Source: Leucoraja erinacea
Taxonomy: Eukaryota
Length of the DNA: 64,000 bases
NCBI RefSeq assembly: GCF_028641065.1
Contig: NC_073404.1
Span: 13,888,001 to 13,952,000 of the forward strand
Direction of reading: 5' to 3'
The first letter of the stretch is position 1, and every line of letters starts with the position of its first letter. A program made the position numbers and the translations under genes. Of this stretch, positions 81 through 59,649 are shown piece after piece. Under the pieces are notes generated by a model. The model worked only from the letters and a program-made list of their open reading frames with translations, had not been told where the DNA came from and ran no database searches.

Positions 81-183
81 TCTGAAGTCTGAAGAAGGGT
101 CTCGACCCGAAACATTGCCTATTTCCTTCGCTCCATAGATGCTGCCTCACCCGCTGAGTTTCTCCAGCATTTTTGTCTACCAC
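81..183 (+). mobile_element. Short Penelope-derived element with hammerhead-like motif
   Basis: 13-bp direct repeat aaactatcaatca at 68-80 and 184-196; CTGAAGAAGGGTCTCGACCCGAAAC at 89-113. Confidence 0.75.
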
Positions 184-3300: not shown

Positions 3301-6300
3301 GTCACGGCCTCTGTCTGTGACCGCTGAGACTGAAACAAAAACGCTACAGTTACATACAATAATACGTTGGGAAGTTACATTAAAAGGCATGACAGCAAAC
3401 AAGCAATGGTCAACTTCTACAGAATTGATACGTGTTTGCAAGATTTAAACCACAAAACCCCTGCAAGAGAAGTGGTTCAGGTGTGACTATGAGGATAAAG
3501 GACCGTACTAAGCTAAAGGGAAAGTATAAGACTATGCCAATGATAAAGATAAAATCCAGACTGTATGAATTTCTACATACAAGTAATAAGGAAAAGATTA
3601 CAAAAGTTAATGCGAAACACTTAAGACTGAGATGGGAGTGTTTCTATTGGGCATAACCCCAAAGACTGGGCAAAATTCAGATTCCAACAGAGAAATAAGC
3701 AATAAAGAAATAGCAGAAAAATTAACATATATTTTGTGCTTATCTTCGGAGGAGGAAACTTCCTGGAAATAACAGAACAGGCGAGCATGAATGAGGAAGA
3801 GATGTTAGCACAGTGAGACAGTTAGAAGACTGAAGTAATTACCAAAGTAAATTAATCACTGGTACCTTCAATGCCTTCAATAAGATATCCAACAAGCGTT
3901 TATTAAACAATATTACAGCATGTGATGTAGGCGCAGATTGGTTATTTGACAGAAAACAAAATCAGAATAAATGAGCCGTTTAAGTTGGGAGGCTATTTGG
4001 ATCCTTGTGGAGTTTGTCTCAGTCCCTTCATCCACTTTGAAACTAATCAGCACACCATATTGAAGAGTTCAAGAAGGAACTGCAGATGCTGGAATATCGA
4101 AGGTACTTCGATCAGTCTGAAGAAGGGTTTCGGCCCGAAACGTCGCCTATTTCCTTCGCTCCATAGATGCTGCTGCACCCGCTGAGTTTCTCCAGCATTT
4201 TTGTGTACCACCATATTGAAGAAATGGTTTTGAAACCACATAGTTCTGCTCCACTAAATACAGGTGAAGCCCAGAGATCACCAGTGGACCTTTCTCCCAC
4301 TTAAATCATTCTAGAAGCTTTGTGCGAGTCCATAGCATTGATCAGAAGGGGCAAAATGTTGCTGATATGGCTTTACACAAGTGGCCAAGAAATGCCAGCC
4401 AGAAGCACAATCCCATCCGTGCATTACTCACACTTACTATATGAGGGCAGTCCCTGGTGTCAATCAGCACTTGATAGTAGGTGTGTGTTTTGCCTTTCAC
4501 CTCTTTGGAACCTTGAATGCCTGAACTTTCTGGTTTACTGTGAGCAAGAGAAAAAAAAAAGTGTTTATTAATTCATTGACTGCAGCCAGTGATGTATGTT
4601 TAAACAAAAAAGATGGTGGAAATCTGAAATAAAAATAGCAAATGCCAGAAATCCAAAGTTTAGATGAAGTAACTGATTAATTAACTCTTTCTCTCTCCAC
4701 AGATAATGTGACCAACTGTAGATTGCCAGCACTTTCCATTTTTATTAAGGGCGACAGGTAACCCCTGCGTTTCTGGCCACATGTGCAAGTGACATGGCTT
4801 CAGGCTATGAAATTTGCGATCTGGGCCTTTCTAGGAACACAACCCCACTCACCCACCTCAGTAACACCACGATTGTCTGTACTAAATTCCAAGTACCATA
4901 TTCACACCACAGAGATGCAGCAAACAACCCCACAGCCCTTGGTCGAGACTGGGAAAAGCCAAAAGCATTTTGATTTAATAAACAAGGCAAGGATAAAGAG
5001 AAATATGCTCCTTGAAGTTGCTGAATCAACTTTTCAAATTCACTGCAACTGGCAGGCATCGGGACTCCAATAGTGCAGTTCAGCTAGTAGAGGTGTGGCC
5101 TCAGTCCAGCAACCCAGGTTCAATCCCAGTTTGTAGTGCTGTCTGTATGGAGTTTGTGCATTCTCCGTCACTGCGCGAGTTCCCCTGGATAAACAATTGC
5201 CTCTCACATGCTAAAGACATGGGTTGGTACATTAATTGGCTGCCATAAATAGCCCTAAGTAAGCAGTAGAATCTCCAGGGAGAAGCTGATAGGAATGTGG
5301 GGAAGAAAAATTGCGATTACTGTAAAGTTAGAGTGGTGGCCCTTTGCTTAGGGTTGGCAGACTCCGTAGGGTGTAGGTTTTGTGTCTGCTGTGTGACTCA
5401 ATGAAGGGACTCAACCATCAGACAGTATAGTTCTAGCAAGAACCTGGTGACACCATTCCAGACACTGGATCACACTGGCCACCTACAAGGGGGATACACA
5501 GTAATTGTTTATACTTTGATTATTACAACTTGAATTTAAGCATTTCAAGTCCCTGCTCCCAGCACATCAATCCCAAGAGTCCCTTTCCCTCCCTCCTTAT
5601 TTATCACAATTAATTCTCCCTCACATCCTCAGCAACTCCCCTTCAATGCTTTTGCTATCTTATTCCAATAAGTGGTATTCTACAATAGCCAACTAAGCTA
5701 CCCACACATCATTGGGATGTGGGTGGAAACCAGAGCACTGGGAAGAATCTCAGACGGTCCCAGGGAGAATAAGCAAAATCTGTATAGACAGAACCCGAGG
5801 TCAGGGTCAAGCGTGGGTTAGCACAGGTTCACACTGCATACCTTCCCAAGGGAAGAGTGCACATTGTGCTTCCCTCGATTGCCACGCTGCAATTTCAACC
5901 TATGCGCCTCACGCAACCAAAACATGTTCCCCACTAACTTCAATATTCTACCTTCACAAGCACCACGGGAAATTAGCTGGAGCAACGAGTGGCTTGCAAA
6001 CAATCACTTGTACCTGTCAGGGGTGGATGAAGCCACATCACGATCGTAGAGCCTGGCATGCCAAGGGAACAGGACAATTCCTCGGTATCCAAACACACTG
6101 TGCAGAAATAGCTGCAGACAAAGCACATGAGAAGATCATTGTGTCTGATGAATCATGACCCAAAATGTCAGCTGTCCATTTCCACTCCAGATGCTGCCTG
6201 ACCTACTGAGTACAGGTGCACAACCTTTTATCCGGTGTTCCAGAAACCGAAAAGCTCCGAAAACCGGCCATTTTTTCCAGATGTCGTCTGCGCACCAAAG

Positions 6301-17283: not shown

Positions 17284-20200
17284 ATGGCACATTCCCTACG
17301 AGTGAGTGATGGCTTCCTACAACAGCTTGACCTTGTACTCAAAGATGATCATTCTTTGCCCATGGATCTGCATGCTGAACTCAAATCCTGCTTCACAGGA
17401 ACGAAACCCACCCCCACGATTCCTTTCACCCTCCTGAGAAAACTCCACATATTCTTGGAAACAAAAGGTGAGTAAATCAGACAAAAATGGCTGGTTTTTA
17501 ATCTCATTATTCTTTATGAATTTATGCTGGGACGTAGGATTTAACAACCACAAAAAACCCTTGCGTCATTTATCTATATTAAAAGCAACAGGGTAACTAG
17601 AGAAAGCATATGTCCCCTTAAGGATCAGTGCAGTTGTCTATGTGTGGAGCCACAGGAGGTGGACAATGTCTTAAATGAATATTTCTAATTTGTATTTATT
17701 GTGGAGGAGGTTATGGAAGCTAGGCACAAAATGCTGGAATAACTCAGTGGGACTGGGAACATCTCTGGAGAGAAGGAATGGGTCACGTTTCGGGTCAAGA
17801 CCGTTCATCAGACAGTCTCGACCAGAAACGTCTCTCCAGAGATGCTGCCTGTCCCACTGAGATACTCCACCATTTTATGTCTACCTTCGATTTAAACCAG
17901 CATCTGCAGTTATTTCCTACACAGGTTATGGAAGCTATGGAAATCATGGGAGGAAAATAGAGATGTTTTGAAAAATATTCACGTAAGAGGATAGAGATAC
18001 AAGGAATTGCAGATGTTGGTTTAAATAAAAGGACACAATGTGGTGGAGTGAGTCAGCTGGTCAGGCAGCATCTCTGGAGAACACAATGACGATTTGGGTC
18101 GGGATTTGGACCTGACCCGAAACTTCACCAATGCATGTTCTCCAAAGATGCTGCTGACCCCCTGAAATCAACTGGAAAAGTGGGACAAAGAATAGCAGAT
18201 GGAATTTAACTTGGACAAGTGAAAACACAGAACTGTACAGCACAAGAGGCTGCCATTCTGAAGAAGGTCCCAACTTTAAACATTGTTTATTCATTTCTTC
18301 CTTACATGCTGCCTGGCCCACAGAATTCTTCCAGCATTTTGATTTTTGTTCAGCCATTTAAAAGGGACCTAACTGTCAACTTTTTCACACAGTGGGTAGT
18401 GGATATGTGGTAAAGGTGGGTACAAATACAACATTTAAATTATATATGGATAGATACACCGGCAGGAAATGATGAGAGAAATATGGGCCAAACGCAGACA
18501 AATAGGACTACCCCAGGAAGATGTCTTGGTCACCATGACTAGTTGGGCTGAAGGCCCTGTTTCTGTGCTGCAGAAATCTATCACTCTATGATTATAATTC
18601 TGCAGGCAGTAGACTGTTCGGTGAACTTATGTAACTTTGTGGCCCCAAACCATGGCGAGGCTTGTGTATTGTCTAGGTGAGGTCTGCTACATGCAAAAAC
18701 AAAGCATTTCACTGTACTTTCAAATGTATCTATTTGACAATAAAGTATAATTGAATCATTCTTTACATCCTGCCAAGCAGAAGCAGCTCATGTGTGCTGT
18801 TAACAGGGTGCAGGCTCCCCTTCCTTCCCCTCCCCAGCATCATCCATTCCGCCTCAGCTGCCCCCTGTCCCCTCTTGACTGTCCCCCTCCCTACCAAGCT
18901 GCCCCTTCCGTCGTGGATGAGATGTCACTCCTACAGGTGTGAAATAGAGGAGCTCCTCCTGTCGTTCTCCCACCTGGAGTGCTGGCTTAGTAAAGCTGGA
19001 ATAAATTAAGTGACCTGATAACCATTTAAAGATGGGTAGCGAGTCAATTGAGTGGGGCCCTCACCTGTCGTTCTGGGCCCCTGTATAATCTTGGCTGAGA
19101 TGTGATGGTTTGTGTGATTTTACTTACTGTAGTTCGATGTTCTTTGTTTGCAGGGTTCCCTGTGTATCTTCACGAACTTCTGGAGGGTGCAGAAATATTT
19201 ACACCAGAAGTGAAGCTGCCTGAGAGGGTCAGTATAGAAGATGGGAGGAGGTGACTGAGGTGGGGGGTGGTATGGAATACTGCCCTTAATCTGGCACTGG
19301 CTCTGCACTGGACTCTGCTGGTTTCTGGTTTCTCCTAGACACTGGTTTCTCCTGGACATTGGACTCTGCTGGGCACTGATCTCCATTGGAAAGTGATCTC
19401 CACCAGACACTGGTCTCCACAGGACACTGGTCTCCACTTGATACAGGACACTGGTTCTCACTGGGTGCACCACCATTCATTCTGGCTGATCTTTTAACCC
19501 CAATACTACTTCCCCCACCCATAATCCCTCGATTCCATTAATATCCAAACGTTCGGGATCTTTCCGTGAATATAGTCAGTGACTGAGCCACTGCCCTCCT
19601 GTGCAGAGAGTTTCAAAGATTTGGTATGTTCTGGGAACGTAAATTACTTAACTCCGCCCTGAATGTCTGATTCCTTATTTCGAGACTGTACTGGCTGGTT
19701 CCAGGCACGCTGGCCAGGAGAAAAGGCATCCCTGTATCTGCCCATCAAACCCAGCAAGAATTTATACTTCCTTTCTTACTCATTAGGATTCAGAATGCTC
19801 ATTGAGTCAATACCAGTTCCAGCACTCCTGCAACTTAGTCTATCTCCTGTGCCCATCAAATCATTGATTCTATTGTCACATATCTACATTAGGGAGTAAA
19901 TTACAGCAGTAGTTGGGATGTGGGAGGAAATCAGATCACAAGGGGGAAAGCCACACAGTCACAGGGAAAATGTGCAAGACAGTGCACGGATTGAGCCTGT
20001 GTTACTGGAACTGTGAAGCGGCAGCTCTACCAATGAGGCGATGTATTTTAGGAAGTCAAAAGTGCAAATATCTCCGTTGGTGTCTGTGGTGGGTCACCAT
20101 CTCTGATCCTTGTGAGTGTGTGTGCTGAGGACAGGAGATCAGACTTAATCTGGTAAATCTGTTACTGGTTATCAGTTATGAAATGTTAATGACCTTCTCA

Positions 20201-23200
20201 TGTCACGTCCCTGTCCCTTTCAGAACCCGCAGCTGGTGGCCAGATTGGACAAGATCAAAGCAAAGATGGCAAATGAAGAGTACAGACGGATCACCAAAAA
20301 TGTCAACTGCCAGGTGGTGTGATCTTCTCCAGGGGTTCTGGCGTGCTTGCTCTATATTGGTGTAGCCCTGTGTCCAGGAGCAGGACAGCCTGGCTGGGGA
20401 TAAAGCCACAGCTTGGTGCTAACTTCCCTTTATCTTTTGTTCCTAGCAGATAAACCGATACGGCACAATTGGAGATGTGGGAAAGCAAGGTGAGTGGCTG
20501 AAGATTTTCCATTGGATTTGTTTCAAATCATATCTATTCAAAATGAAGTTCAAGACGAGCAGGACCGAATGTAGAATTAAATGACTAGGGAAATGATGGA
20601 GGATTTCAGCCAGTCAGGCAGTCACTTGTGGAAAAAATATTTATTTAACATTTCTGGCCAGGGAGCCTTCCTGAGAACCTCTTTCCACAGGACCTGCGTT
20701 CTGGCTGAGTTCTTCCAGCAGTTGGTTTTGATTCAGATTCTGGTCTCTGCAGTTTTAGTTGATTCCACTGTAGAATGAGTTGGTCACTCTGGCAACAATC
20801 TGGCATTTGTGTACCAAAGTCTCAGAGTGACTTTGTCATCTGAGAGATTCTGTTCAGCTGGGAAGTGTTAAAAAATAATGTTGAGACTGCAGCAGGTATT
20901 ATTGAGGTTGGGGTAGTGGAAGGGGAGCCTGCATAACCATCTGTTTATGAAAGAACTGCAGATGCTGGAAAAATCAACGGTAGACAAAAATGCCGGAGAA
21001 ACTCAGCGGGTGAGGCAGCATCTATGGAGAGAAGAAATAGGTGACGTTTCAGGTTGAGACCCTTATTTAGACGCTGCTCGACCCGAAATGTCACCTATTC
21101 CTTCGCTCCATAGATGCTGCCTCACCCGCTGAGTTTCTCCGGCATTTTGTCTACCTTCATGACCACCTCGTCATCTCCACCTCGCCCAGGAACTCCGGAT
21201 GGAACATCCTGTCAAGTCAGGCGAAGCACGTCTGAAGAAGGGTTCCAACCCAAAATGTCATCTGGCCATTCTCTCCAAAGATGTTACCCACTGAGTTCCT
21301 CTCACACTTTTGCTCAAGGTTCCAGCATCTGCAGTCTCTTGTGTCTCCATTAAACAGGTAAGGTATATATTCTTTAGAGTTCAGAGGATGAGAGGTGATC
21401 TGATGGAAATATAGAGCATCCCAATGGGGCACAGTAGATAGATGATTGAGATGTTTCCATATGGACTGTTAGCTAGGAACACACCCACATGAGGATTCTG
21501 GTACATCACTCTGCAACTCGCCTGTGTTTTTCCCAATCTCCAAGTGTTCTGGTATGAACCTGGAAGGTTCCATCTCCTTGATGTAGAAAACCTGAAACAC
21601 AATGTTAAAGCAAAGTCTCTGCGCCTCACAGCAGGGATGTGGTAACCACAGTGTCTGTGGGTGATCAGGAGAGCTCCTGGTTGCTGCATCCAGTGGGCAA
21701 GGCTGGTCTAAATTAACTTCTGCTCTTCGTTTTGCATCAGCATCGCTTTAGAAATGCTGCTCCTATTTCCAGAACACAGAGCAGTTTCCTCTGGTTCTGG
21801 GATTTTGGTTGCCTAGCTGCGACCAGCACTGTCAATCTCCTGTGTCAGATCGGCTTTTAACCCTTGCTGATGTCTACCTCTTTCTGTCGGTGTTGCAGTG
21901 CGATCCGCTAAGGCCGTGGTGGTAACCATCTTTAACTTCATGGTGACGGTGGTGGCAGCGTTTGCCTGCGCCTACCTCGGTAGTCAGTACTTGTTCACGG
22001 AGCCGGCTGCGGTGAGTGTGGGTATCGCATGGGACGAAGATAATTGATGGGAGGTGTTTAACAGAACATAGATCAATACAGCATGGTAACAGGCCCCTTC
22101 AGACAACAATGTTTGTGCCAAACATGATGCCAAGTAAAACCAATCTCTGCCTGCACATTACCAATATCCCACATACCCTGCATATCCATGTGCCCATTTA
22201 AAAGCCTCTTAAATGCCACCATAGTATTTGTCTCCACCATCACTCCTGCAGCAAGTTCCAGGAACCCACAACCCACTTTGTAAAACAAAACACACCTTGC
22301 ACATCTCCTTTAAACTTTGCCCCTTCTCACCTTAAAGCCACGACTTCTGGTGTCTGACGTTTCCACTCTGGAAAATGCGTCTGACTGTCCACCCTATCTA
22401 TGCCTTTCAGAATTTTATCTACTTCTATCAGGCCTCTCCTCAACCTCTGATGTTCCAGGGAAATTCAAGTTTGTTCAACCTCTCTTTATATGTAATACCC
22501 TCTAATCCAGGCAGCATTCTGGTAAACCTCTTCTGCACCACGTTCAAAACCTCCACATCATTGCTGTGACCAGAACTACACACAGTACTTCAATTGCTGC
22601 CTAAGCAAAGTGTTACAAAGCCACAACATGACCCTTATACTCAATGCCCTGACCAATGAAGGCAAGCATACCATATGCCTTCTTTACCACTCATGTACTT
22701 GCGTTGCCACTTTCAGGAGCTATGGATTGATGAAGAATAGAGATGGGAGGGAGAGCTTTGATGAAGAGGGATTTGTGAGGGAGTGTTTGGGCTTGGGAAG
22801 GTCCGATGCCGGGGTTTGGGATTTGATGGGGGATGTTTGTCAGCTGGGGTAATGTTAATGAGGAACTTGGCCAGTGTATATGGGCCAACACTTCATTATT
22901 GGAGTGAATGGAATGTGGGGCCTGTACTCCTGTGAGATGTGGTTTCTGGCATGTGGTCAGGGGTCAGACTGAACAATGAACATCTGTAGTGGCCCTGGGC
23001 GACATGCTGTTGGCTTCCTTCAGTCTCCCTGCGCTGGAGAACGCTGGAGTACGCTGGTCTGCTCTGGATGTCTGGCAGGAATGAATACACAAGAATGGAT
23101 GATGTGATTGCACAAGCCTATGGCAGACCTTGTTCTCTGACATTGCCTCTGCCTTTCCTTCTGCTGCAGTGTGTTCTCAGTGGACTCATTGTTGCCTCAG

Positions 23201-26200: not shown

Positions 26201-27691
26201 TTAACAATTATGTGAATATTGTAACAATTGCAAATAAATATTTTCTTTTTTTTTTTAAATGGCCCCCTCTATTCTATTTTCTCTCTCATGTCCAGGGAAT
26301 GAACAGCACAGAACTGATTGCTAATTGACAGCATCTGAATGTAATTGGTGTGAGCTGTTGCAGCCTAGAGAAGTATGTGGAGAGGGGAGGGGAGGGGGAG
26401 AGAAAGAGAGAGACTGATGAGAGAGAGATACAAAAAGTTAAGGGGAGATACTGGCAAATGAGGGGAAATAGAAGGGCAGTGAGGTAGACAGCCCCTCTAT
26501 CACCCGATCCTGAAGCTCACTGACATCCACTTTTGCTGGGACTCGGTATCCTCTCCCCAAGGAAACCTGTGGCAATGTGCTGACAATACCCCAGTCCCAC
26601 AGGCAGCTTTCTAATCAGTGGGTGCACTGATGCTGCTGTCGGGTCTGCAGTTTCCAGAGATGTAGTAATAATGTCCTTGCCTTGAGTAAATATTATCTGC
26701 CAACCAATTCACCAGAATCTCTGCTCTGCAGAGTGCACAGGGAATTGATGGAATTGTGCCTTGTCCAGGCTGACAGTGCGCTGTGCGGCACAACATGTAA
26801 CCAGCAGACTAATTCCACATGGGGGGTGTGGATTAATCTGATTGCCAACCAAAATGCGGATGTGGTATTGTCACTCAGCAAAGGGTGGGACTCTGTGTTT
26901 ACCTCGCATTTAATTTGAGATTGAAATCAGGATTAAGAGATTGTTAGAGATCACTGTCTCTGAGGGATCCCACTCAAAGGGCAGGTGGGGAGCAGGTTTG
27001 TAACTGGAACGACGATGAGGCTTTGAAGCAGAGTAATAGTCGATGATATTCAGATATAGAAAAATCCTCCTGTAATTAAAAGATCATCTGAGAGGCTCAT
27101 CAGTATAGAACAATCTGATTGTTGTAAATCGAAGGGTTTTAGATATAAAATAATGAAAAAAGTTATCATTGCCTTGTCCTTTGCTATACAATTGTGTTAC
27201 AGTCTGGATTAGTAAAAGGATCAGAAGGTCTTGCAGCAAAAGGTTCAGGAGCCAGAGCTTAGGCAATCTTTATTTCATTTAATCTGCACAGGTTTAGTCA
27301 CTACAGGGGGTGGGGGTGGGAAGAGCGATAGAGAGGGAAAACTTTGCATCTGGACACTGCACAGGAACAGAATGGTGACACAGAGGCTCTCTTTACTTAA
27401 AGGAACCGCGCTGTTTCTATTGCATCCATTTTATAAATGTGTTTCTGTCTTTTTGCTTTACCAAAAATGTTCCTGCCACCCAACACTGCCCCCATCTGCC
27501 TTCCTTGTGCCATCGGAACATGGGCCATTCCACTGGGCTATCCGCTCCCTGTCCATATAAGTGAGCAGGAAACCACCACATACTGTGGGCGGTGGGCAGA
27601 TACAGGAGGAGCACTAGCGACACAAGCCTGCTCCCTTGCTTCTCGTTAGACCTGCATGGAATTTCCACCACCCAAGGAAAACATTTTTTTC

Positions 27692-27820
27692 TGTCTGAAG
27701 ATGGGTCTCGACCCGAAACGTCACCCATTCCTTGTCTCCAGAGATGCTGCCTGTCCCATTGAGTTACTCCAGCTTTTTGTGTCTATCTGTGGTTTAAACC
27801 AGCATCTGCAGTTCCTTCCT
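27692..27820 (+). mobile_element. Short Penelope-derived element with hammerhead-like motif
   Basis: CTGAAGATGGGTCTCGACCCGAAACGTC 27695-27722; flanked by aaacatttt(ttt)ctgt repeats. Confidence 0.75.
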
Positions 27821-28465: not shown

Positions 28466-30837
28466 CTACTCGTTGGTGACGATGGCGGCGTTGTAGATGA
28501 GGTATGAGGTGTGGCGGAGGGATGTGTGTGCTTCAGGTGTGGCCTGGTCCTCAGGCAGTGGTTCCAGATGTGGCACGACCTGGTCACTGTGCTTCATACA
28601 GGGAGTCATCCTGGCCCCTTTACTCCCAGATCCGAGTGTGTCTCTCTCTCCAGGAACCGTGCGAGCCGGGAAACCAAAGGCCAAGGGCTTGTCCCTGGTG
28701 ACCTGCTGCACGCAGTGGGGAGCATGGTGATACTGCGTTAGGGGTCCATGCCCCGCTGCCGGGGTGCTGCAGAAACCGGCCGTACAGTACATACACCTTC
28801 TGCCCACTCCGCTATTTGACGGAGCCTGGGCTGAGCGGGATGCAGGGGGGCTCCATCCCCGCGGGCACCTCTTCACCATCCTGCCCTGTCTAGTGCATCG
28901 CGCCCGGCGGTTCTGGAACCAAACCTGGAAAACCACAAAGGAGAAGTAAGTGGATATCAGAGTACAGACACTGGCATCTGGAGCGAAATACACAGTGCTG
29001 GAGGAACTCAGCAGCAAAGATCATAGATTGCTCAGCAGGTCTGGGAGCATCTGCGGAAGGAATGGACGGGGAACGTTTCAGCTCGGGACTCTTCAGACTG
29101 AATCTTCAGTTTCAACATTTAGTCTGAAAAAGGGCATTATTAATACACTTCTGGACCCTGACCCGAAACGTCGCCTGTCCATTCCCCAAAACCAAGATGC
29201 TCCTTGACCTGCTGAGTTCCTCCATCGCCAAGATTCCAGCATCTCAAGTTTGCTGTGTCTCCATCTCATCTCTTGAGCTGGAGGAGAATGGAAAACCTCT
29301 AAATGCAATCTGATTTTAACCAGGGGTCACATTGCAATTAAGAAGAACGATAAAATGTTTATTCGTACGATAATATATTAAAACATTTGAAATACGTAGT
29401 GGATAGCGGATCCCACAGCTAAGCCAACATTCAGTTCCTCGACCAGCAAAGGAGATAATTTAGCCATGATCACATTGCTTTTGTTGAATCAAGCCGTGTA
29501 CAAGTTGGCCGCTCCCGCTCCCGCTTTACAACAGCAAGTTTATTTGAAGAGTGGGACATGTCCGCCATCCCAGGACCTCCTCACTTGCACTTTCACTGCA
29601 CTCCTTCTGTGGCAATCACGGCCTTTGCTTGGATAGGGAGATCGAACTGTACACTGTGAAGGTTATGAGAGATTTGCTCTTGTATTCAAATCAGGGAATG
29701 AAGTCCAGGATGTTTCTCGCCCTCCTGACTCTTGCCACTTGATCCCTCATGCCTGCCCTACCATTCAATGCTATCACGACTGGTCTGCCCCAGGCCCCGT
29801 CTCCTGTCTTCCCCACTTGCCCCTTGTCCCTAATTCCTCAATGAATACCCCCCAAACATCCCATGGATTCGCCGCGGGTGCAGGAAGTGCCTCAGTTTAA
29901 AGTAACTGCCCCTTAACGTGGGATTGTCTCCTCTCCAAGACTCTCTCGCCGGCAGAAACATCACCACGTCTCCCCGTCACGTCCCCTTGGGACCCCCCTC
30001 ATTCCGCGGGACTCAGAGCCGATGGAGAGCCTCGGACAGCGGGAACCCACCTGGATCTTGGCCTCGGCAATTCCGGTGATCTCGGCCAGCCTCTCCCTCA
30101 GGCTGATGCCCGGGTAGGGAGTCACCACGAAGGCCTCCTCCAACTCTCCCAGTTGCCACTTGCTGAAGATGGTTCTTTTCCTCTTGCGCTGCCCCCCACT
30201 CCCGCATCCCAGGCCCACCGCCCGGGGCAAACATAGGGGTCTGGTGTCTAGAGGAGTGAGATGAGGGCGAAGGGGGAGTCAGGCGGAATCATCTATCACC
30301 CTGGTCTGACCCACCACCATCCACAGATTCCCCCCACTCAGACCAACATCCCACCCACACCTCCCTGCACCCTCTCGCACAACTCTAGCTCACCATCATC
30401 CTTCCCACGCCCTCCCCCCACCCTCTGCCCCCCGCCCTCCTTCCACCGTTTCTCTTGATCACTCCTCTTCGACCATGTCTGACCTAGACTCGCACCCCCG
30501 ACTCCCATCTCTCTTTCCGCACTCAATACTCTTGCAGGTCACCACCCGGAATATGGACTATATCCCTCTGCCTCCACAGACGCTGCTTGACCGCGGGCTC
30601 CTGCAGCGAGCGGATCAATGTGTGTTCCTCTAGATTCCAGCCTCTGCCGTCTTTTGAGTCTCCCTCAGCCAAAGGTTTCACATCCTCCTCTCACCCTCCC
30701 CTCCTCACCCTGCCCCCTATTCTCCCCATCACCCTCGACCACATTCACACCCCTCCTTCCCTTTCTTCGCCCCCTGCTCTCACATTTCTCAATTCCTTCC
30801 CCCTCCACCCTCGCACGACAACCTCACCATCGTCCAT
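28466..30837 (-). CDS. SEBOX: Paired-like (Q50) homeobox protein SEBOX (Mix/mezzo-related)
   Basis: Exon 30247-30051 (RKRKRTIFSKWQLGELEEAFVVTPYPGISLRERLAEITGIAEAKIQ) splices to 28924-28466 (VWFQNRRAR...HTSLRHTSYLIYNAAIVTNE*). The C-terminal motif resembles SEBOX SDLIYASAIVTN, and the gene lies next to TMEM199 as in mammals. Putative 10-nt first coding exon 30837-30828 (ATG GAC GAT G|gtgagg, phase-compatible, in-frame TAG upstream) is less certain. Confidence 0.88.
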
Positions 30838-31194: not shown

Positions 31195-31329
31195 TTAAGA
31201 AGGAACTGCAGATGTTGGAAAATCGAATGTTGCCTATTTCCTTCGCTCCATAGATGCTGCTGCACCCGCTGAGTTGATCCAGCATTTCTGTCTACCTTCG
31301 ATTTTCCAGCATCTGCAGTTCCTTCTTAA
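31195..31329. repeat. Fold-back short element (Penelope-tail derived) with long inverted ends
   Basis: ttaagaaggaactgcagatgttggaaaatcgaa (31195-31227) versus ttcgattttccagcatctgcagttccttcttaa (31297-31329), one mismatch. Confidence 0.75.
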
Positions 31330-32340: not shown

Positions 32341-33252
32341 GGATCTGAGGGAACTAACAAATCCAGACTTCCCTCAATAATGAATGAGATGCAGCAGACA
32401 ATTAAAGAACAATAACCTGCTTACAACCAAGTAGTTGGCTGCAAATACCAACGAAGACCATGGCTGATTACATCAGCATCAGAGAGGAAGTGAAAACTAA
32501 AATAAGAGAACAAAGAGAGTGAGGGAAGATGTGTTGGCAATGTGAAGAAAAGGGCAGGACAAGGCGAATTGTGTCTTCAACCGGAACTTGCACAGAGACG
32601 GCATTAGTGAAGAGTTAACATCCAACTTCACCAAGAGGGCGCTCACACACTAAAGTACTAACATACAACAGTGCTGCATAGGAACAAACTCTTCGGCCCA
32701 CAATGTCCATGTCAAACATGATGGCAAGATAAACTAATTTCATCTGCTTGCACATGATCCACATCCCTTCTTACTCTACATATTCACGTGGTTATCTAAA
32801 GCCTCTGTAGGGCAACTATCTTATGTACTTCCACCACCGCTCCTGGTAGTGTGTTCCAGACATCCACCACTCTCTATGTAAAAAACCTGCCCCGCATATC
32901 TATATTACTAAAAGTCTGATCTTGACCGCTTTTGGCCCACTGTGCTTCGATTTCCGACAGAATGCCGCCACCTACGGCCGTCATTTTTGGCCACCTCGCT
33001 CAGAGTCCCCCTCCGCCTTTCGGGACCGGAGGATTTTTCCCATCAATGAAAAATCAGAGAGATATTAATGGGTTTTTTTAAATTGCCATTCTCTCTGCTG
33101 CCCCTTCTGGATGGAGGGGGAGGGACTATAAAACCCGGAAGTGGTGTTCCTCACTCAGTCTCTGCAAGATGGAGAAAGCCTGAGGGTCATGTCTGTCTGA
33201 GCTGTGAATAACACTGAACACATGTCTACTTAAATGTGAGTACCCTTAATGT

Positions 33253-33510
33253 GGTTCTAAAATGCTTGCAAAAAGTGTCTACTGTTTCTAAAATGGTTGC
33301 AAAAGGTGTATCTATTGGTTTGAAAATGCTTGCAAAAAGTGTCTCTATTGGTTCTAAAATGCTTTCAAAAAGTGTCTCTACTGGTTCTAAAATGGTTGCA
33401 AAAAGTGCTATATTTGGTTCTAAAATGGTTGCAAAATGTGTCTCTATTTGGTTCTAAAATGCTTGCAAAAAGTGTATTGGTTCTAAAATGCTTGCAAAGC
33501 GTGTCTATTG
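33253..33510. repeat. ~33-bp minisatellite inside the Helitron
   Basis: About 8 copies of ggttctaaaatg(c/g)ttgcaaaaagtgtctctatt, followed by (GA)n at 33523-33575. Confidence 0.85.
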
Positions 33511-33518
33511 CCTGTTGT

Positions 33519-33557
<39 letters not shown>

Positions 33558-33689
33558 AGAGAGAGAGAGAGAGAGATCACGACTGTCTGAGCTGTGAATC
33601 AACTAAACACACTGAATGTCTACTGAACTGTGAGTGTGGTGTTTTGTGTGGTTTTATGGTGGTTTCACCCTGATTGAAATGGTATGCAT

Positions 33690-33915
33690 TTGGTGGTGGC
33701 CTTGCACCCTGCTTGAAATGGCAGGAAACAGCACGAGTTTGGTGGCCCTGCACCCTGCTTGAAGTGATATGAAACTGCACTTGAATCGGTGGCCTTGCAG
33801 CCTGCTTGAAGTGGCAAGAAACTGGACTTGAATTTGGTGGCTTGGTACCCTGCTTGAAATGGTAGGAAACTGCATTTGAATTTGGTTGCCTTACACCCTG
33901 CTTGAAGTGGAATTT
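33690..33915. repeat. ~47-bp minisatellite inside the Helitron
   Basis: About 5 copies of ggtggccttgcaccctgcttgaa(a/g)tggcaggaaactgcacttgaatt. Confidence 0.75.
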
Positions 33916-34749
33916 CAAAGAATGGCCATGAGTCAACTGTTAGTCCACCAGCCGTTAGTGAGCTGCCAGCACATCAGGCTTGAGTGACTGAGCTGCCACC
34001 TCAAGAATCCATTTGGCCCACAATGTCCATACTAACCAGTCCCTTCAGCCCACTGCATCGGAGGACCAGCCCTCCCGTGTGAACATGGGACCCAACGGGT
34101 CCCACTTAGTCTAGTTTATTTTCAATTTTGCCCCTTTCACCTTAAAGCAATGTCCTCTTGTCTTTGACAATTTCCACCCTGGTAAACCTCCCGCACCCTC
34201 TCCAAAGCCTTCACACCACATCCTTCCTATAGTGGGGCATCCTGTACTGCGCACAAAACTCCACATGCAGCTTAACCAATGTTTAATAAAGTTGCAACAT
34301 GATTTCCTGACCCTTGTTCTCTATGCCTTGACCAAAGAAGACAAGTACATCAAAAGCCATCATTACGATTCCATCTACTTGTGTTGCCATTTTATTAAAC
34401 TGTTCTGTGTTCGTTGTATGAGGCATTGAAAAAGGGAAGGAATCCCCATGACAGAGATGTGGCAAACTCTTTTCTCTCAGAGGGAACTGCGTTCTCTCAG
34501 AGGTATCATGCAAAAGCCAGGGTGGGAGGAGATGCAGTCGCTGCAGCTATGTGAGTCAGTGAGTTTATAATAGATAGACACAAAAAGCTGGAGTAACGCA
34601 ATGGGACAGGCAGCATCCCTGGAGAGAAGGAATGGGTGCCGTCATCCATTCCTTCTCGCAAGAGATGCTGCCTGTCCTGCTAAGTTACTCCAGCTTTCTG
34701 TGTCTATCTTTTGTTTAAACCAGCATCTGCAGTTTTTTCCCTAAACAGT

Positions 34750-35660
34750 TTATAATAGACGTCTGTCCTGTGTGATGGAGGGAGAGAGATCAAGAAAAGG
34801 GAGAGTGTTGTCGGAGATGGTGTTCAACGTAAAGGGCCTGTCCCACTATGAGGACCTAATTTGCGAAGTGTTTGCGCTCGCCACAAACTCGCAGCATGGT
34901 CTACACGTGACCAACAAGAAGACAGGCATAGTTGGAGGCCCTGCGGGTACCCATGGCTACACCTTAGACGAACGCGTTGAGAGAAGTCTAAAGCAAAAAT
35001 GTTAATAGTTCAGGAAGAGAGTTGGTTGAGGGGGACGGACGAGTTCTCTGTTCAAGGAAGAACCAGAGGGCCCAGAGATGTTCCTGGTGGGAAATGGAGG
35101 TGTAAAGGGCCTGGACATCTATGGTAAAGATTAAGTGAAGGAGACCTATAATTTGGATGTTGATGAGGTGGAATAGAATTGGGGTATTTAGAGATGGGGC
35201 AGAAACAGCACGTTTGTCAAGGCAGACCTGCTTGTAGATTTCGGAAACGAATAAAAAATGGGCAGCGCAGGGTTGGCGAACCAAAAGGTTGGAAGCTGTC
35301 GAGGGAAGATTGCAAGAGACGATAAGATCAGTGATGGTTCATTGGACGTAGAAACAAGGAACCGCAGATGTTAGTTTACAAAAAATATATACAAATTGCT
35401 GGAGTAACTCCAGAAGATGGGTCCGACCGGAAATGTCACGTATCCATGTTCTCCAGAGATGCTGCCTGACTCGCTGAGTTACTCCAGCACTTCGTGCCTG
35501 ATGTTCATGATGTGTATGGGTTGTGGGCAATGGTGGTCAAGGTATGATATGTCCGAGACCTGACGCCTGGCCACTGCAAGGGAAAGGTCAGCCTGCCAGA
35601 CTACAATAGCACCTCCCTGGCCAACGGGTTCGGTGACAATATTGGGAGAGGTCCCTTCCT
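34750..35660 (-). mobile_element. Degenerate Penelope-like RT fragment
   Basis: IFTIDVQALYTSISHQEHLWALWFFLEQR and PVGQGGAIVVWQADLSLAVARRQVSD resemble PLE RT motifs (FTMDVxSLYTSIPH; PADKGGAVVVW). Confidence 0.7.
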
Positions 35661-39000: not shown

Positions 39001-40661
39001 CCTTCTGGCACTGAACTCCTCAGCCAGTTTGACAAAGGGTCCTGAACCAAAATGTCACCTGTCCACGTCCTCCTAAAGATGCTGCCTGATCCTCTGAGTT
39101 ACTCCAGCACTGTGTGTTTTTTGTAAACAAGCATCTGAGGTTCCTTGTTTACCTGAAACCTACTACATGCCCTTGCCTGAAAGTCTTGTAAGTTTCAGTC
39201 ACATTTCCTGTCACTCTTATTAACTCTAGAGGGTCTGGTACCATTTTGGGTACTGGGCTTTGGCAATTTCAGTCCATGAGGACCATAATAATATTTAAAT
39301 AGTGGGTGCTGGTGCCATCTGCTGGACTATGACAGGACTGCAGAGATAACATCCAGCGCCAGGGTAGGTTGGCCTGTGAATCGGAGCCAGTTCAGCATTT
39401 TAAATAATACTCACCCAGATTTTCTTGTGGGGTCCTTTCACATTCCCAGACTGAAACTACAGACAAACCTCCCTCCACCATCCCCACACTACTATACTTT
39501 TAGTTACAGTCACCTCCAGGTCCTGCCTCATCATGATATATTTCAGGCCAGAGATTCCCTGGGGTTCTTGCAGGTACATTATTTCCAAGGTCATAGACTC
39601 GGTTCCATTGCTGGTTTTAGACAAGCACCTGAGAAAGTACACTGACGAGCTCTGCCGCCTCTTCCTTTGAATCCTGCAAACCCATCTTATCACCCAATGC
39701 AGCAAAAACATTGTCGAGGGAAATGGACAGATGACATTTCAGGTTGGGACCTTTCCTCAGACCAGACTGACCTGCTGAGTTCTTCCAGCATAGTCTGAAG
39801 AAGGGTCTCGACCCGAAACGTCACCCATTCCTTCTATCCAGAGATGCTGCTTGTCCCACTGAGTTACTCTAGCATTTTGTGTCTATCTTCGGTTTAAACC
39901 AGCATCTGCAGTTCCTTCCTACAGAGTTCTTCCAGCACTTTGTTTTCTGCTCAAGATGACAGTATCTGCAGTCTCTTGTGTCTTCATGGCACATTCTGGT
40001 CACTACTGCTCACCATTTGAACTTGCAACTGATCCTTTCCTTTCCCAGACCTTTAATTAAATGGAAAAGTGAGATTGTTTTACCTGAACCATGGTACAAA
40101 ATGAGTATGTGCACAAAAATGCATACACAGTCATAGACGCAGACATTCAGTCTTACATGTAGGTATACACACTCATGTATGTACATACACACCCATTCAT
40201 ACAGATTGTGTATTCATTGAAGATTTAGAGACACAATTATGACAATTTTTGTGTTGTTCCTGAGCTGCCATGATCCTGCTTTGTGTCAACTGTTATAAAA
40301 CCACTTGCGATCTCATGAGAAATGAATGAACTGATATGTAATGAGCCCATTTGCTGCCACAACCTGCTGTTACGTCTGAAGTATCCCAGACAAAAAGGTA
40401 CAGCATTTCCTGACTGGGGCTCCATTGTTACAAGTCAGGGCCAGTGTTAGGGAAACTCTCCGTGAAGTTCCACATCTGGAACTGAAAAAGTTAAAGTTAC
40501 TTCAGTCAGCTGAGCCGTGCTTCTGTGACCAGCATCTTTTCTTTTTCACTCTCTCCCTCCAGTGTAAGCAGATGTTTGGTGCCTTCCCTCCTGATGTTTT
40601 GGGGAATCTTGACTACAAAAGTCTCTGCTATGTCATCACTCATGGTGAAGAGAAGGACTAA
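36097..40661 (+). CDS. MYL10: Myosin regulatory light chain (MYL10 / MLC-2B cardiac-like), 7 exons, 166 aa
   Basis: Exons 36097-36099 (ATG|gt), 36212-36301, 36571-36646 ([25 protein letters not shown]), 36733-36837, 37399-37477 ([24 protein letters not shown]), 38400-38448, 40563-40661 (..[19 protein letters not shown]); total 501 nt. RLC family is certain. MYL10 rather than MYL2 is inferred from [19 protein letters not shown] and linkage to IFT22. Confidence 0.88.
36927..37176. mobile_element. PIF/Harbinger-like MITE in intron 4 of the RLC gene
   Basis: Long TIRs tgcccctgtcccacttaggaaacctgaac.. / ..gttcaggtttcctaagtgggacaggggca; flanks TGA/TAA; three internal 20-bp repeats (g/a)gttgccggaggttgcaggt. 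Confidence 0.8.
39791..39923 (+). mobile_element. Short Penelope-derived element with intact hammerhead-like motif, nested in an older copy
   Basis: 14-bp TSD gagttcttccagca (39777-39790, 39924-39937); motif at 39795-39822. Confidence 0.82.
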
Positions 40662-45811: not shown

Positions 45812-46418
45812 TTGGAGCAAAGGTAGACACAAAATGCTGGAGTAACTCAGCGGATCAGGCAGCATCTCTGGAGAAAAGGAGTGGGTGGCGTTTCAGGTCA
45901 AGACCCTTCTTCAGGCTGATATCAGGGGAGTGGGCAGGCCAAAGATAGAATGTAGTCAGAATAAGATTGGTGGGAGAACTGCGGAGGGGGAGAGAGGGAA
46001 AACTAGGGCTATTTGAAGTTAGAGAAGCCAATATTCATACTGCTGGGGTGTAAGCTCTCCAAACAAAATATGAGGTGCGGTTCCTCCAATTTGCGCTCTG
46101 CCTCAATCTGACAATGGAGGAGGCCCAGAACAGAAAGGTCAGATTGGGAATGGGAGGGGGAGTTGAAGTGCTGAGCAACTGGGAGATCAGGTAGGTTAAG
46201 GCGAACTGAGCGGAGGTATTCCGCGAAACGATCGCCGAGCCTGCTCTTGGTCTCGCTGATGTACAGAAGTTGACACCCGGAACAGCAGATACAGTAAATG
46301 AGGTTGGAGGAGGTGCAAGTGAACCTCTGCCTCACCTGGAAAGACTGTACATCGGCGATACCAAGCGCAGGCTCGGCGAACATTTCGCTGAACACCTCCA
46401 CTCAGTCCGCCTTAACCT
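45812..46418 (-). mobile_element. Penelope-like element 3' end: GIY-YIG endonuclease, hammerhead-bearing tail and inverted 5' piece
   Basis: FTCTSSNLIYCICCSGCQLLYISETKSRLGDRFAEYLRSV..HFNS..MNIGF (GIY-YIG). Tail motif CTGAAGAAGGGTCTTGACCTGAAAC at 45914-45890. 46345-46418 is an inverted copy of 46192-46266. Confidence 0.9.
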
Positions 46419-47499
46419 TTTGCAAACAAACGGCTGCATTTCTTACATTCTACCAGCCTGAGTCAGAGACCAAAAACTGCCAGCTGGGCAGGGAATCCAA
46501 TGGGTACATTGGCAGATAATCCACCAATGGCTGCTGGGTGCATGGTACAAAGACAACAGCCAAAATATGTGAAATAACTTCCAGGAAATGTACAACACAT
46601 TGTTTGGACATTTAATTCATGTTGACACTCTGCTCAATAATGTCCATCTAAAAGGGGAACAATTAGTTCGAAGCTCATCCAATAGTGCTCCACTCCACCT
46701 TTTCCCAAACCGATGTTTTAAAATTAACGTGAGTTTTTGTTTCCCACACAGTGACATGTCTGACTGTATGAGGAGTGGGTCAGCTGCTGTGGAGAATCCC
46801 CCACTGATCCCTGGTTTAACTAAAAAAAGCTGTTGAAGTCAGTGCAGAGTGCTGAAAACCACACTGGTCTAAATACAATGCAGTTGACCCAGTTGCTAGA
46901 CAAAAGCAATATTGTTAGTACATTACTCATAACAGCTGCATTAAACTATTGTCTCCATCAAAGATCAACAGGTTTAGATGAGATCGCCGACTGGAAACAA
47001 TACAAAGGAATGCGATTCTGCTTCCATCCCCATCAATCATGTATGATGTCTTCCACACGTCCCCTCTGCAAAAGACTCTGAATGCTGTTAATACTGCTCT
47101 CAGGCTGATGAATTATACCATTGTGTAACAGAAGGGTGTTTGGCCCTGAGGGCCTATGCTGTCAGAAAGGCACTACCCAACCTAATCCTATGTCTCAGTG
47201 TGAGACACATAGCTCTACAGCATCCACGTGAGGAAGATATCTACCTCCACCTTGTCAGACCCTGAGTTCTAGACCCCACCACCCTTTGATTGGCTTTTCT
47301 TCATCTCTCCAACCATTCTTCCACTAAAAGTCCATAATAAAACAAAATATTCTACATACTCTTATACTCAGCAGTTCATACAACTTCTGTATAAAAGGCT
47401 GAGGGAAGATCATCCACTTTAATAATATTATATCTGTTTATCCTTCTACAGTTGCTGCCCGATCTGTTGAGCTTTTCCAGAATTTTTGTTTATATTTCA

Positions 47500-49680: not shown

Positions 49681-52600
49681 GTAGTGAGCAGGCGAGCGAA
49701 GATAGATGTCGGGTAAATCAAATGTATGGTAGCGTGTTGATGCACAAGGGTGTATAAAGTCTGTTAAATAAGCGGTTGGAGGTGCGTAGAAGGAAGGGTC
49801 AAACGCCGGGATGGGTGGTAGGATGAGAAGAATAAACGTCGTGGCGGATGATTATTACAGCTGCAACAGCTGGGGACTGAGAAGTTACTGCTATAGATCC
49901 AAGAGGCTTGGTGCTACCGTGCTAGGAAACATCTCAACGAAATCCAATCACCTGGGAATGGCAGGTGATTATGGATTGCTGAGGGACACACTGTTGCCTG
50001 AAACATTAACTCTTAATAGAATGGGGCCATCTCGCATCCCATTAAGTTGAAACTAGCAATATTATCCTGGTAATTTGTAAGGAAGGCATGCCGATTTTTA
50101 AAATATATGATCAACGTATAAATGTTGAGATGTGCTGATCCATCATGATTATAAAGTATATTGTACAGTATATGTTCCTGGATTTATCTTTTTAGAGCGG
50201 AAAAACGGTTCTGGCAAATTTTCTTTCTGATGCAACAGAAGCAATTGGTGGCGACTACAGCCCTACTCAGGGAGTCAGGTACATGGAGCATCTAGCAGTT
50301 TATTTAAAACCAAACTTGCCTCAAAACGTACTTTGTAATACATAAAATGATGATGACAGAGAGAAAACATTATACATTTATCTTATATTCTTATTCATGA
50401 ATCACCGAACCTTGTGTGCCGTGTGGTTTCTAGCATTTGCTAATCATAGCACATAGTGGCTGCAGGATAAGCAGAAGAAAGTTCACTAAATACCTTTCCC
50501 ATTCCTGGTTGCCGTCCAGTTGTTGTATCTGGATGTGTTCAGATAGCTGCTGTATAATGCAGATCTCACTATGATACCATCCTGAATCGCCACACTACAA
50601 TCTCCTATTGTCCGTGCATTAAATCTATTTACTGTCATGGGGTGAAATTATTTCTCAAAATATGTTAATGTCTGATAATACAATTTGTATGGTAAATTAG
50701 AAACAGCTGCCAACAGAACAAATATATCAGATTGGTGCAGTTCTATTGGTAAAGAAATCACGCTGAAGACTGAAGAAGGGTCTTGACCGGAAACGTCACC
50801 CATCCCTTCTCTCCAGAGATGCTGCCTGTCCAACCGAGTTACTCCAGCATTTTGAGTCTACCTTCGATTTAAACCAGCATCTGCTGTTCTTTCCTACACA
50901 AAGTGCTGGGGTAACTGAGCAGGTGAGGTAGCATGATACAGATGCATGCCATTTTGGGTCTAGACCCTTCTTCAGCCTGATTGCGGTGGGTGGGGGAAAG
51001 CTGGAAAAGAGGAGGAGAATTTCTTCAAAGTGTGCAAATAACATGCTGTTAAGTTAATGTAGTATTTGGTCCAGTTAACAATCACTGAGTATTCTGTTTT
51101 TCAGGTAATATCCTTTTATTCTTTCTCTCTCTCACTCCACATTTGTAGCTGTACCTCTGTTTCAATTTGTTTCCATTTAGCTTTTCTGTCTCCGACTGCC
51201 TAACTATTTAGTAATTGTTCTATTAATAACTTTGATCTCATGGTAATGTGCAGAAATGAACCTATGTTTTGTTTTATTGGTTATTTGCGACTTCCCTGCT
51301 CTATGCTCTCTATGGCACAGGGTCCTTTGTGCATTTTAATCACTTTCTCAACCAACCCAAGCACTTTCAGTAAACCATAGTCCTAGATCCCTCTGCCTTC
51401 CACTTCTTTTGGAATTACGCCCTCCAATTTTATTGCTTATTCCCCACATGTCACACTTCTCATTTCTCAGTATTAAATTTCACATCAGCCCATCCAACCA
51501 GTCTTTGCCTATATTTTCACATGTCTTCAATAGATCCTACTTGCGATTACTAGGACTCAGATTTATGTCAGTGATTTGGATTTTAGGTTTAAATAAATTA
51601 TGTATAAGTTATGTATATTAATGCTAATGAAATAATCATTTTGTATACTAGAATACTGGAATTCGAATGTCCAAATGTGAATGCTGGTGGTAAAAATGTT
51701 GGATGCGAAGTGGAACTCTGGGATTGCTCTGGTGATCAGAAGTAAGAAAACAGTAAAATTAATCATCTATCATATCACCCCTTTAGCCTCCGACATTCCT
51801 CTGAAAACAATCCGAGTTTGTCCAACAACTGCTTATAGCGAATACTTTCTAATCTAGTTAATATCCTAGTGAACCTTATTTGCACCCTCTTCAAAGCCTC
51901 CATATTGTTCATGTAATGGAACAACTAAAACTCCACACAATACCCCAAGTGTGGCATAACAAAAGATTAATATGGCTGGAACATGATCTTACCTTCATAC
52001 TTAACACACTGACCAATGAAGGTAAGTGTGCCATACCCCTTCTTTACCGTTGTACATTTGTTGCCGCTTTCAGAGAGCTATAAACCTGAACCCCAAAATC
52101 TTTTTGTACATCGTTGCGCCCCAGGGCCTTGTCATTTACTGAATATGTCCCTCTTTCATTTGATCTCTCAAAATGCAGCACCTTACAATTATGTATAGTC
52201 TGTGTTACATGTGTATATGGAGTGTGTGATGTCGCAGCCACTCTTCCAATACCTGAAGGGGCTGCTCCTTGCCTTCTGGCTGAACTTCACACCTATCATC
52301 GTCATCTTTGGACACCCTGTGCATAAGGGAGAGGGTAGGGCAGAAGATGTCCTGGATAGGTTGCTCCTGAGCCTCACCAAGCTGGCCATCCGTGAGTCAC
52401 GGCGCCAGGTGGAAGAGGGCTTTACCCGAGCCAGTTGCCTGTCCCTTTTCCGGAGTTACATTCACACCCGGGTGGTACTTGTGAGGGAATACGCACTGTG
52501 CACGGGCGCCCTGGGGGTTTCCAGGACCGTTGGGTTCCGCATGGGGTGGAAGTCATCCTCAATAAGGATTGTAATATAGTTGTACAGTAATTTATTTAGT

Positions 52601-59099: not shown

Positions 59100-59649
59100 T
59101 TCAAACTCTGGGAAATAAATAATAGTAAAGAAAAGTAAATCAAAAACAGTGAATAACAATGTAAAGATTGTACTCAACATTATACTTTCCATAAATCAGA
59201 AAAACACCCAAAATGACAATAAAACAAAAGAGCTGCCAACATGCAAATGCTACGTTGCTATGGTCTCTGGCACAAACGACCCATCCTCACCTTATCCTTG
59301 AAACCCTCTTCATTCTTGATGCTGACTTACTTCTACCTCTGCCTTTACCCCTCTCCATCCTCCATGCCAACTTTTCCGTCCCCCTGCCGCGAACCTCTCC
59401 AATCTCCGCGCCGACTTCTCCTTCTGCCCTAATCCTTCCCTATCCACCATGCCAAATTTCTTCTCTCTCTGCCTTCACTCCTCTCTCCACGCCCATATCC
59501 TTCTCCTCCGGCCCCTACCCCTTTCTCCATCCGCCTTTCTTCTCTCTCCATCCGCCTTTCTTCTCCCTCTTACTCTTCTCTCCGCGCCCACGTCCTTCTT
59601 CTTCCTTCCTTACCCCTCACTTCACAGCAATGATACTCTAGTAGATATT

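Follow-up and report, generated by a model that had tools for sequence, protein, structure and literature searches.

A hammerhead-bearing Penelope-like element end and its short scattered copies in a 64-kb window of a skate genome

Host genes, hammerhead motifs, and short inserts

The window analyzed here, which is the whole 64-kb stretch of DNA, contains several host genes. From exon motifs at about 36281, 36586, 36819, 37404, 38431, and 40587, we take the segment 36200-40650 (+) to be a myosin regulatory light chain (MRLC) gene. A paired-type homeobox gene presumably occupies 28466-30200 (−), with its homeodomain split between about 30176 and 28921; the last splice acceptor of this gene lies a few tens of bases past the end of a decayed head-to-head repeat. 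An intronless Mis12 ORF (58404-59195, −; Pfam E 2e-36) stands head-to-head with what we take to be a Derlin-2-like first exon, from about 59780 onward (+). Also present are reverse transcriptase (RT) fragments of a non-LTR retrotransposon (Pfam RVT_1; 9639-11229, −, and 15432-15884, +), unrelated to the Penelope-like element (PLE) discussed below; a near-perfect 80-nt inverted repeat at 13474-13555, which matches mir-960/MIR4372 below the gathering score and is probably a small DNA-transposon remnant; and minisatellites of 33 and 48 bp at 33252-33910.

The last intron of the presumed MRLC gene carries, in sense orientation, a pLTR-end insert of 133 nt (39791..39923, +), made up of an extra T followed by positions −3 to +128, where hammerhead C3 (39795) is position 0, plus denotes downstream, and minus denotes upstream. 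Identical TSDs of 14 bp bound it on the left (39777..39790, +) and on the right (39924..39937, +). Within it lies a predicted minimal type I hammerhead (39793..39824, +), composed of a 2-bp stem I, CUGAAGA, an extra A, a 4-bp stem II with a CUCG loop, GAAA, and a CG palindrome, with cleavage predicted after the GUC at 39822. The insert closes with an optional “tail” of about 35 nt (39889..39923, +), located between two preferred 3′ ends (~+92 and ~+128). It landed in an older head-to-head copy, now decayed, from the same repeat group (39713..39985, outer ends approximate), which holds a decayed hammerhead of its own (39727-39766, −). Three hammerhead-bearing arms (37239, 39029, and 39795) are sense-oriented in the introns of this gene.

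The initial annotation had described a hammerhead motif dispersed along the window, and this recurrence was borne out. The motif pattern gave eight matches with at most two mismatches (89, 4117, 17811(−), 21232, 27695, 39795, 45914(−), and 50770), compared with 0 in each of 100 dinucleotide shuffles. Decayed copies were likewise recovered near 21070(−), 35411, 37239, 39029, and 50975(−), and a profile search of the window found others beyond those first listed. With 39792-39923 as the query, this search returned 32 arms at E ≤ 1; the 28 arms at E ≤ 0.01 make up 2,598 bp, or 4.1% of the window. At least two subfamilies of these short copies, or stubs, are told apart by diagnostic bases. The exact pattern gave no matches in viral_contigs and none in metagenome_contigs.

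The CUGANGA and GAAA boxes and a UH cleavage site, which characterize the minimal hammerheads of PLEs, are present. It was observed that the whole motif is intact in only 3 of the 17 arms reaching the hammerhead (4117, 27695, and 39795), and these three have the extra base after A9, the ACGU palindrome, the GUC triplet, and the 2-bp stem I as first described; seven copies had been named as bearing the whole motif, and it does not hold for the other four. In copy 50770 the core alone is intact and C11.1 is changed to G, the palindrome region of copy 89 reads ACAUU, copy 17811 combines G10.1>C with a GUG triplet, and copy 45914 has both C11.1>U and U16.1>C. The variation of stem II, interpreted initially as a stem that keeps pairing while its loop varies, comprises one pairing-preserving G-U change in the window (4117) and is otherwise largely CpG decay; pairs in which both partners have changed appear only once distant relatives are added. 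Among the 17 arms, which are not independent and include two misaligned rows, the core departs from the column majority in 23/183 cases, loop II in 21/68, the 3′ flank in 169/939, and the CG palindrome in 10/34. The expected conservation of the core was found relative to the loop (12.6% versus 30.9%; p = 0.001) and not relative to the flank (18.0%; p = 0.09 over all sites), with p = 0.02 for the latter comparison when CpG sites were excluded.

The proposed comparison of the motif with known hammerhead models gave a negative outcome, as no Rfam hammerhead model matched the window at E ≤ 1. A MIR2118 match was rejected, the sequence in question (20946..21157) being a head-to-head insert of the second subfamily with a decayed TSD. 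For annotation, this repeat covers about 4% of the window, escapes Rfam, and is mis-called as microRNA precursors.

Short TSD-bounded inserts, also part of the initial description, proved to be 103-200 nt long, six of them with exact TSDs of 9-15 bp. An exact repeat of at least 12 bp flanks 5 of the 18 units searched, compared with 1 of 300 random intervals (2 of 300 for at least 10 bp), and 12 of the 18 units, mostly older copies, show no exact repeat longer than 7 bp. The insert at 81..183 (+) is a short form of 103 nt with a 13-bp TSD, in which palindrome and triplet are mutated. That at 4067..4208 (+; 142 nt, 14-bp TSD) joins a short inverted tail arm to a direct arm with an intact hammerhead, and that at 17723..17922 (200 nt, 15-bp TSD) joins a short minus arm head-to-head to a long plus arm. 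A long-form insert of 133 nt (27688..27820, +) has an intact hammerhead with U as the extra base and a TSD of 9 bp if exact, or 11 bp with one mismatch. The 173-nt head-to-head insert at 34574..34746 (12-bp TSD) lacks the hammerhead core and lies within a decayed PLE RT fragment, and the long-form insert at 50767..50899 (+), where no TSD was found, adjoins an older minus-strand copy (50900-50978).

Two further features of the inserts were noted. The repeat has inserted repeatedly into or next to earlier copies belonging to its group (34462-35350, 39713-39985, 50767-50978, 17723-18350, and 20946-21340), and one of these landing sites is decayed PLE RT sequence (34462-35350). The first 7-8 nt of the core are duplicated just before the hammerhead at 81-95, 50763-50776, and 29096-29110, which looks as if RT had re-primed at the template end.

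Relation to an endonuclease-bearing Penelope-like element

The minus strand of the window contains a C-terminal GIY-YIG endonuclease fragment of a PLE (46009..46347, −, ending in a stop codon at 46009-46011; part of it recurs, short and inverted, at 46345-46419). It is followed on the same strand by a segment (45820..46008, −) that comprises about 95 nt of 3′ UTR, the decayed hammerhead of copy 45914 (45887-45914), and a short-form end. This is the only endonuclease-linked copy in the window, and it has the hammerhead in the pLTR behind the PLE ORF. Over +28..+90 it shares 84-89% identity with six arms of the 39795 subfamily and 83% with the seventh.

The endonuclease fragment is 57% identical to P0003 and 74% to P0001, and its closest named proteins come from Leucoraja erinacea and Chiloscyllium punctatum. 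Pfam gave no GIY-YIG match for the fragment; the proteins to which it is 57-74% identical match this domain at E 1e-3 to 1e-4, at or just below the curated cut-off. P0003 carries a PLE RT plus a CX4CxxC linker. A CX2-5CxxC linker between RT and endonuclease marks Neptune and Nematis elements, according to the available text of PMC8557442; it is present in both closest proteins, and the window copy ends before it. The PLE is likely of the Neptune/Nematis type. Decayed PLE RT fragments, 42% identical to P0003, were found at 34462..35122 (−); they are not continuous with any hammerhead copy and have been hit by a later insertion.

The architecture of the inserts is also that of endonuclease-bearing PLEs: an inverted pLTR arm, a one-sided tail of 30-40 bp, and a TSD are all present. 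Long and short arms stand head-to-head at 4117, 17811, 21072, 34640, and 35411, and two long arms do so at 31196-31328. The repeat is almost certainly the pLTR end of a PLE. The reading of the motif as a PLE-type minimal type I hammerhead thus gains support from the 45914 linkage, the related loci described below, and the hallmark features, and mobilization by a Penelope-like element is supported by the head-to-head arms, the tail, and the TSDs. The part of the initial proposal that did not carry over is that of a separate non-autonomous family, given that copy 45914 shares the sequence. Since the stub sequence is the 3′ end of this endonuclease-coding copy, short products of the PLE's own RNA are the simpler reading.

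Taking the search beyond the window, 80 loci encoding related endonucleases, 80 of 96 having been confirmed, were collected from metagenome contigs (261 kb); their hosts are likely invertebrates, which is inferred. A plain descriptor located 31 distinct hammerhead sites in these 261 kb, compared with 0-2 in each of 20 shuffles, and features left free by the descriptor recurred: the extra base in 28/31, the CG palindrome in 29/31, and a stem I of at least 2 bp in 26/31. We trained a covariance model on 18 rows, 6 of them window copies and 12 locus copies. It matched the sense strand at 46-340 nt past the endonuclease in 42 of the 59 loci with enough flank, including 31 of 47 loci outside the training set, when these were counted on their own. 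Of its 66 matches in all, 46 are confined to no more than 5.4% of the sequence. In the 18-row alignment, five of nine pairs change on both sides, and covariation is 0.52 versus at most 0.08 in slid controls; because the descriptor that picked the rows requires stem II, and few families are represented, better evidence comes from stem I and the invariant core. The extra base after A9, the G10.1-C11.1 pair, and the palindromic 15.2-16.2 are all present, these being hallmarks described in the available sections of PMC4209133. Together with the related loci, the four hallmarks given there indicate that the motif is, as far as sequence can tell, a PLE hammerhead kept by long-term selection in master elements.

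In one related PLE family, most copies have the core CCGACGA or CCGAUGA (U4 to C) behind the endonuclease; its loci are L011:1097-1136, L009, L015, L026, L029, L032, L052, L062, L065, and L080.

The scattered copies themselves are probably for the most part inactive, considering the few intact arms (3/17), the rarity of tandems, and the predicted sequestration of stem II. Folding models, which do not score the hammerhead core, predict a weak stem II: its 5′ side pairs with +28..+39, leaving a stem II probability near 0 in the whole unit, and folding z-scores were not significant (−0.77 to +0.73). The predicted probability of an intermolecular ACGU duplex was also near 0 in nearest-neighbor models that leave the core unscored. 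None of the 17 tandem-repeat rows in the window is a tandem of this repeat. In three public DNA runs, a 95-nt tandem unit was found in 15, 16, and 21 contigs, and in two runs, over the 13 joints listed, tandem units of 33-53 nt occurred in 34 and 45 contigs; tandem joints thus number tens of contigs, compared with thousands for solo junctions. Among the contig junctions listed, tandem joints were not enriched at the cleavage site. From the portions of these sources available, published PLE hammerheads show weak cleavage, confined to multimers (PMC4209133), that of an anole PLE needs the protein for cleavage (PMC11167929), and one of nine Xenopus dimers was cleaved (bioRxiv 10.64898/2026.07.22.740005). 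Contigs labeled or guessed to be RNA (X15, X16, and X19) contain the repeat, most with long unrelated flanks that are likely read-through.

The folding models also drew attention to an 8-nt stretch (+47..+54, within 39842-39907) whose predicted partner is either +75..+82 or +105..+112, with z-scores that are not significant. Each partner lies 10-16 nt before one preferred 3′ end, and in these models the alternative pairing may mark RT start sites.

Ends of the short copies and their possible origin

The two ends of the stubs behave differently. At the 3′ side, 24 of the 32 arms stop at +86..96 (11 arms) or at +122..128 (13 arms); the query of the arm search itself ends at +128, and the TSD-bounded inserts confirm that end. 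The preferred 3′ ends are ~35 nt apart, and this difference is the PLE tail, described in the available text of PMC8557442 and PMC11167929. At the 5′ side, 16 of the 17 arms reaching C3 lose homology within 4 nt upstream, and the pairwise identity of the arms is 0.25 at −30..−5 versus 0.52 at −4..−1. Inverted arms stop at scattered points, from +4 to +93. No arm in the window starts at +28, the predicted cleavage product; copies retain an intact cleavage site inside, and the edge precedes the core instead of lying at that site.

The same edge was seen in contigs of public DNA runs. The top loose ends at −3, −2, −1, and 0 numbered 3356, 1520, 918, and 855 contigs in run X1 (6,649) and 2916, 1190, 758, and 674 in run X11 (5,538), figures that come from the best 19 of 185 rows, are saturated, and would include any contig running on into the UTR, which likewise ends at −3 against the 39795 copy. 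The flanks of these loose ends are unrelated in both runs, with an agreement in X1 of 0.31-0.34 versus 0.52-0.59 where contigs continue in shared sequence. All 13 tandem joints listed return to −4..0 from variable points, and 5 of the 15 joints listed switch strands at C3. The edge spans several nucleotides, and contig junctions show extra upstream letters; a consistent cap-derived G was absent at three TSD-bounded junctions. An initiator-like TCAGT is found at the edge and is not conserved in the invertebrate relatives. At the same place a polypyrimidine tract ends in CAG, which occupies −4..−2 in copy 45914.

These observations can be brought together in the following account, toward which we lean. 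Transcription would likely start at the A of TCAGT (−3), so that the 5′ edge would be the 5′ end of the transcript. The PLE protein would bind near the start of the ORF, nick the DNA, and begin cDNA at +92 or +128; on uncleaved RNA from the 5′ pLTR, RT would then run off the RNA 5′ end after ~95 or ~130 nt and leave a stub. Head-to-head pairs with a single tail would result when both nicked strands are used, and short tandems when RT re-primes; RT starts in the 3′ pLTR would account for endonuclease-bearing copies such as 45914. The hammerhead would be selected in the master element and not in the scattered stubs. For an anole PLE in vitro, the available sections of PMC11167929 describe internal RT initiation at two adjacent sites near the ORF start, an endonuclease that cuts both strands, and uncleaved RNA as the main template. 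They also describe that the RNA must reach ~55-60 nt past the RT start (the first 172 nt of the ORF versus 111-118); such a need for RNA beyond the start would favor the 5′ pLTR and leave stubs immobile. Overall, we judge it somewhat better than even that stubs are dead-end run-off products of uncleaved PLE RNA with the hammerhead selected in the master, and, taken separately, that they are by-products rather than a self-propagating family seems probable. It counts against this account that a full-length PLE master was not found within the 64-kb window. Further points against it are the breadth of the edge, the lack of a consistent cap-derived G, the splice-acceptor-like CAG at the edge, the absence of a conserved TCAGT in the invertebrate relatives, and the unlinked T59 subfamily described next.

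A different origin would be an independent non-autonomous family, in which short masters are transcribed from their own promoter or by read-through and mobilized in trans by the PLE, as in SINE/LINE pairs. The discrete ends, the TSDs of their own, and the 16 of 17 arms without upstream PLE sequence fit such a family, as do the two or more subfamilies with diagnostic bases. In particular, all five window loci of the T59 subfamily, which includes 39795, are without UTR and endonuclease, and the sole linked copy has A59, so that an independent short master is a possible source. Transposition in trans has a precedent in Adineta, where pLTRs sufficed to mobilize unrelated DNA (PMC3846280, available text), and a 2026 preprint proposes, in its accessible part, that non-autonomous retrozymes arise from pLTRs (bioRxiv 10.64898/2026.07.22.740005). 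The stub, however, holds nothing foreign to the PLE end and is without the ~55-60 nt beyond the RT start that the anole PLE needs (PMC11167929, sections available); no stub in the window carries the flank of another stub, and the window is without tandem arrays. We regard an independent family as unlikely.

The edge could also be a pause site, in ordinary 5′-truncated copies begun in the 3′ pLTR whose RT stalls, or which are resolved, past the hammerhead hairpin or a protein, given that RT halted by a structure or protein would leave an identical edge. Truncation, and single minimal hammerheads from truncated PLEs, are described in the available text of PMC4209133 and PMC8557442, and the edge is several nucleotides wide. 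Yet arms truncated beyond −4 are nearly absent (1/17 in the window), stem II is predicted to be weak, and, as a weak argument, summed depth in X1 shows no further fall from −7 to the endonuclease (0.62 million at 45921 and 0.46-0.99 million at 46009-46063); depth summed over contigs does not measure copy number, and its values for the two copies used were tenfold apart. Such truncation appears decidedly unlikely as the source of the stubs. Another reading takes the edge as a 3′ splice site (pyrimidine tract, CAG|U), with stubs arising from spliced or debranched RNA; the pyrimidine-rich UTR of copy 45914 does end in CAG at −4..−2, and the intron of D. virilis Penelope ends at helix I (PMC4209133 and PMC2377424, as far as available). 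But the intron-side G at −2 is kept in 15 of 17 arms and the A at −3 in 10 of 17, and the loose letters before −1 reveal no common first exon (agreement 0.32-0.33, X1 and X11), which makes splicing very improbable.

The run-off account makes a direct prediction from the shared 5′ edge, namely, an RNA 5′ end at −3 and run-off cDNA of ~95 and ~130 nt. Its value would be mechanistic, in the route by which PLEs arrive at full-length, tandem, and inverted insertions from internal RT initiation and in the role of the hammerhead; the ribozyme itself is no surprise, since pLTR hammerheads and scattered truncated copies are already known. Noticed after the fact was a resemblance of +18..+29 to the MTE consensus (9/12; equally good 12-mers make up 0.28% of the window) and of +28..+32 to the DPE (4/5). 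That the hammerhead DNA doubles as an internal core promoter of the PLE, with the initiator-like TCAGT placing +1 at −3, is a doubtful idea on this resemblance. If it were true, each stub would be a strong-stop-like cDNA carrying its own start site, some stubs could be re-transcribed and re-copied as a ribozyme-headed parasite of 100-135 nt, and such genomes would record PLE start, RT start sites, and template jumps in many thousands of products.

Comparison with known systems

A literature search that had most subscription journals outside its reach turned up no account of this skate/shark family or of run-off stubs from PLEs; supplementary files of PMC4209133 and bioRxiv 10.64898/2026.07.22.740005 may list chondrichthyan motifs. 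The comparisons below refer to the text of each source that was available.

The minimal hammerheads of PLEs (Cervera and De la Pena 2014, PMC4209133) share with the present motif the core boxes, the extra base between 9 and 10.1, G10.1-C11.1, the palindromic 15.2-16.2, the position in the pLTR, and the occurrence mostly as single motifs scattered in thousands. Stem I has 2 bp here, shorter than the 4-5 bp of the Schistosoma families; a D. virilis PLE variant is also reported to have a helix I of 2 bp (PMC4209133), so the short stem I is compatible with membership. No cartilaginous fish is named, and no fixed 5′ edge at the hammerhead is described, in the available text of that paper.

Similar to the endonuclease-bearing PLEs Neptune and Nematis (PMC8557442, PMC3846280) are the C-terminal GIY-YIG with CCHH-type residues, the linker in the closest proteins, the head-to-head arms, the one-sided tail, the TSDs, and the insertion into own copies. 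The head-to-head layout of a long and a short arm is that of Adineta Pen2a (PMC3846280). This is, however, different from those elements in that most insertions here are only the last 95-135 nt, with no ORF, and the TSDs are 9-15 bp, compared with 8-10 bp in Adineta (PMC3846280). With PAc of Anolis, a Poseidon element (Frangieh et al. 2024, PMC11167929), the likeness lies in two RT start sites that define the tail, RT starts ~90-120 nt behind hammerhead A9, and an uncleaved template with no reads ending at the cleavage site. PAc belongs to another clade, its ORF starts in stem II, where an AUG occurs in only 2 of 17 arms here, and run-off stubs are not discussed in the part of the article at hand. 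A protein search with the 41-codon frame that opens at the AUG variant of 27695 matched two short unnamed proteins and revealed no RT fusion.

The non-LTR retrozymes of animals (bioRxiv 10.64898/2026.07.22.740005) are likewise non-coding and pLTR-related with a type I hammerhead; they were found in one chondrichthyan, with monomers evenly dispersed, as here. In the accessible part of that preprint they consist of tandem units with at least two complete hammerheads. The present repeat differs from these retrozymes in that the window has no such tandem and that tandem joints are rare in the contigs. By the features examined, the repeat is the minimal-hammerhead-bearing end of an endonuclease-bearing PLE.
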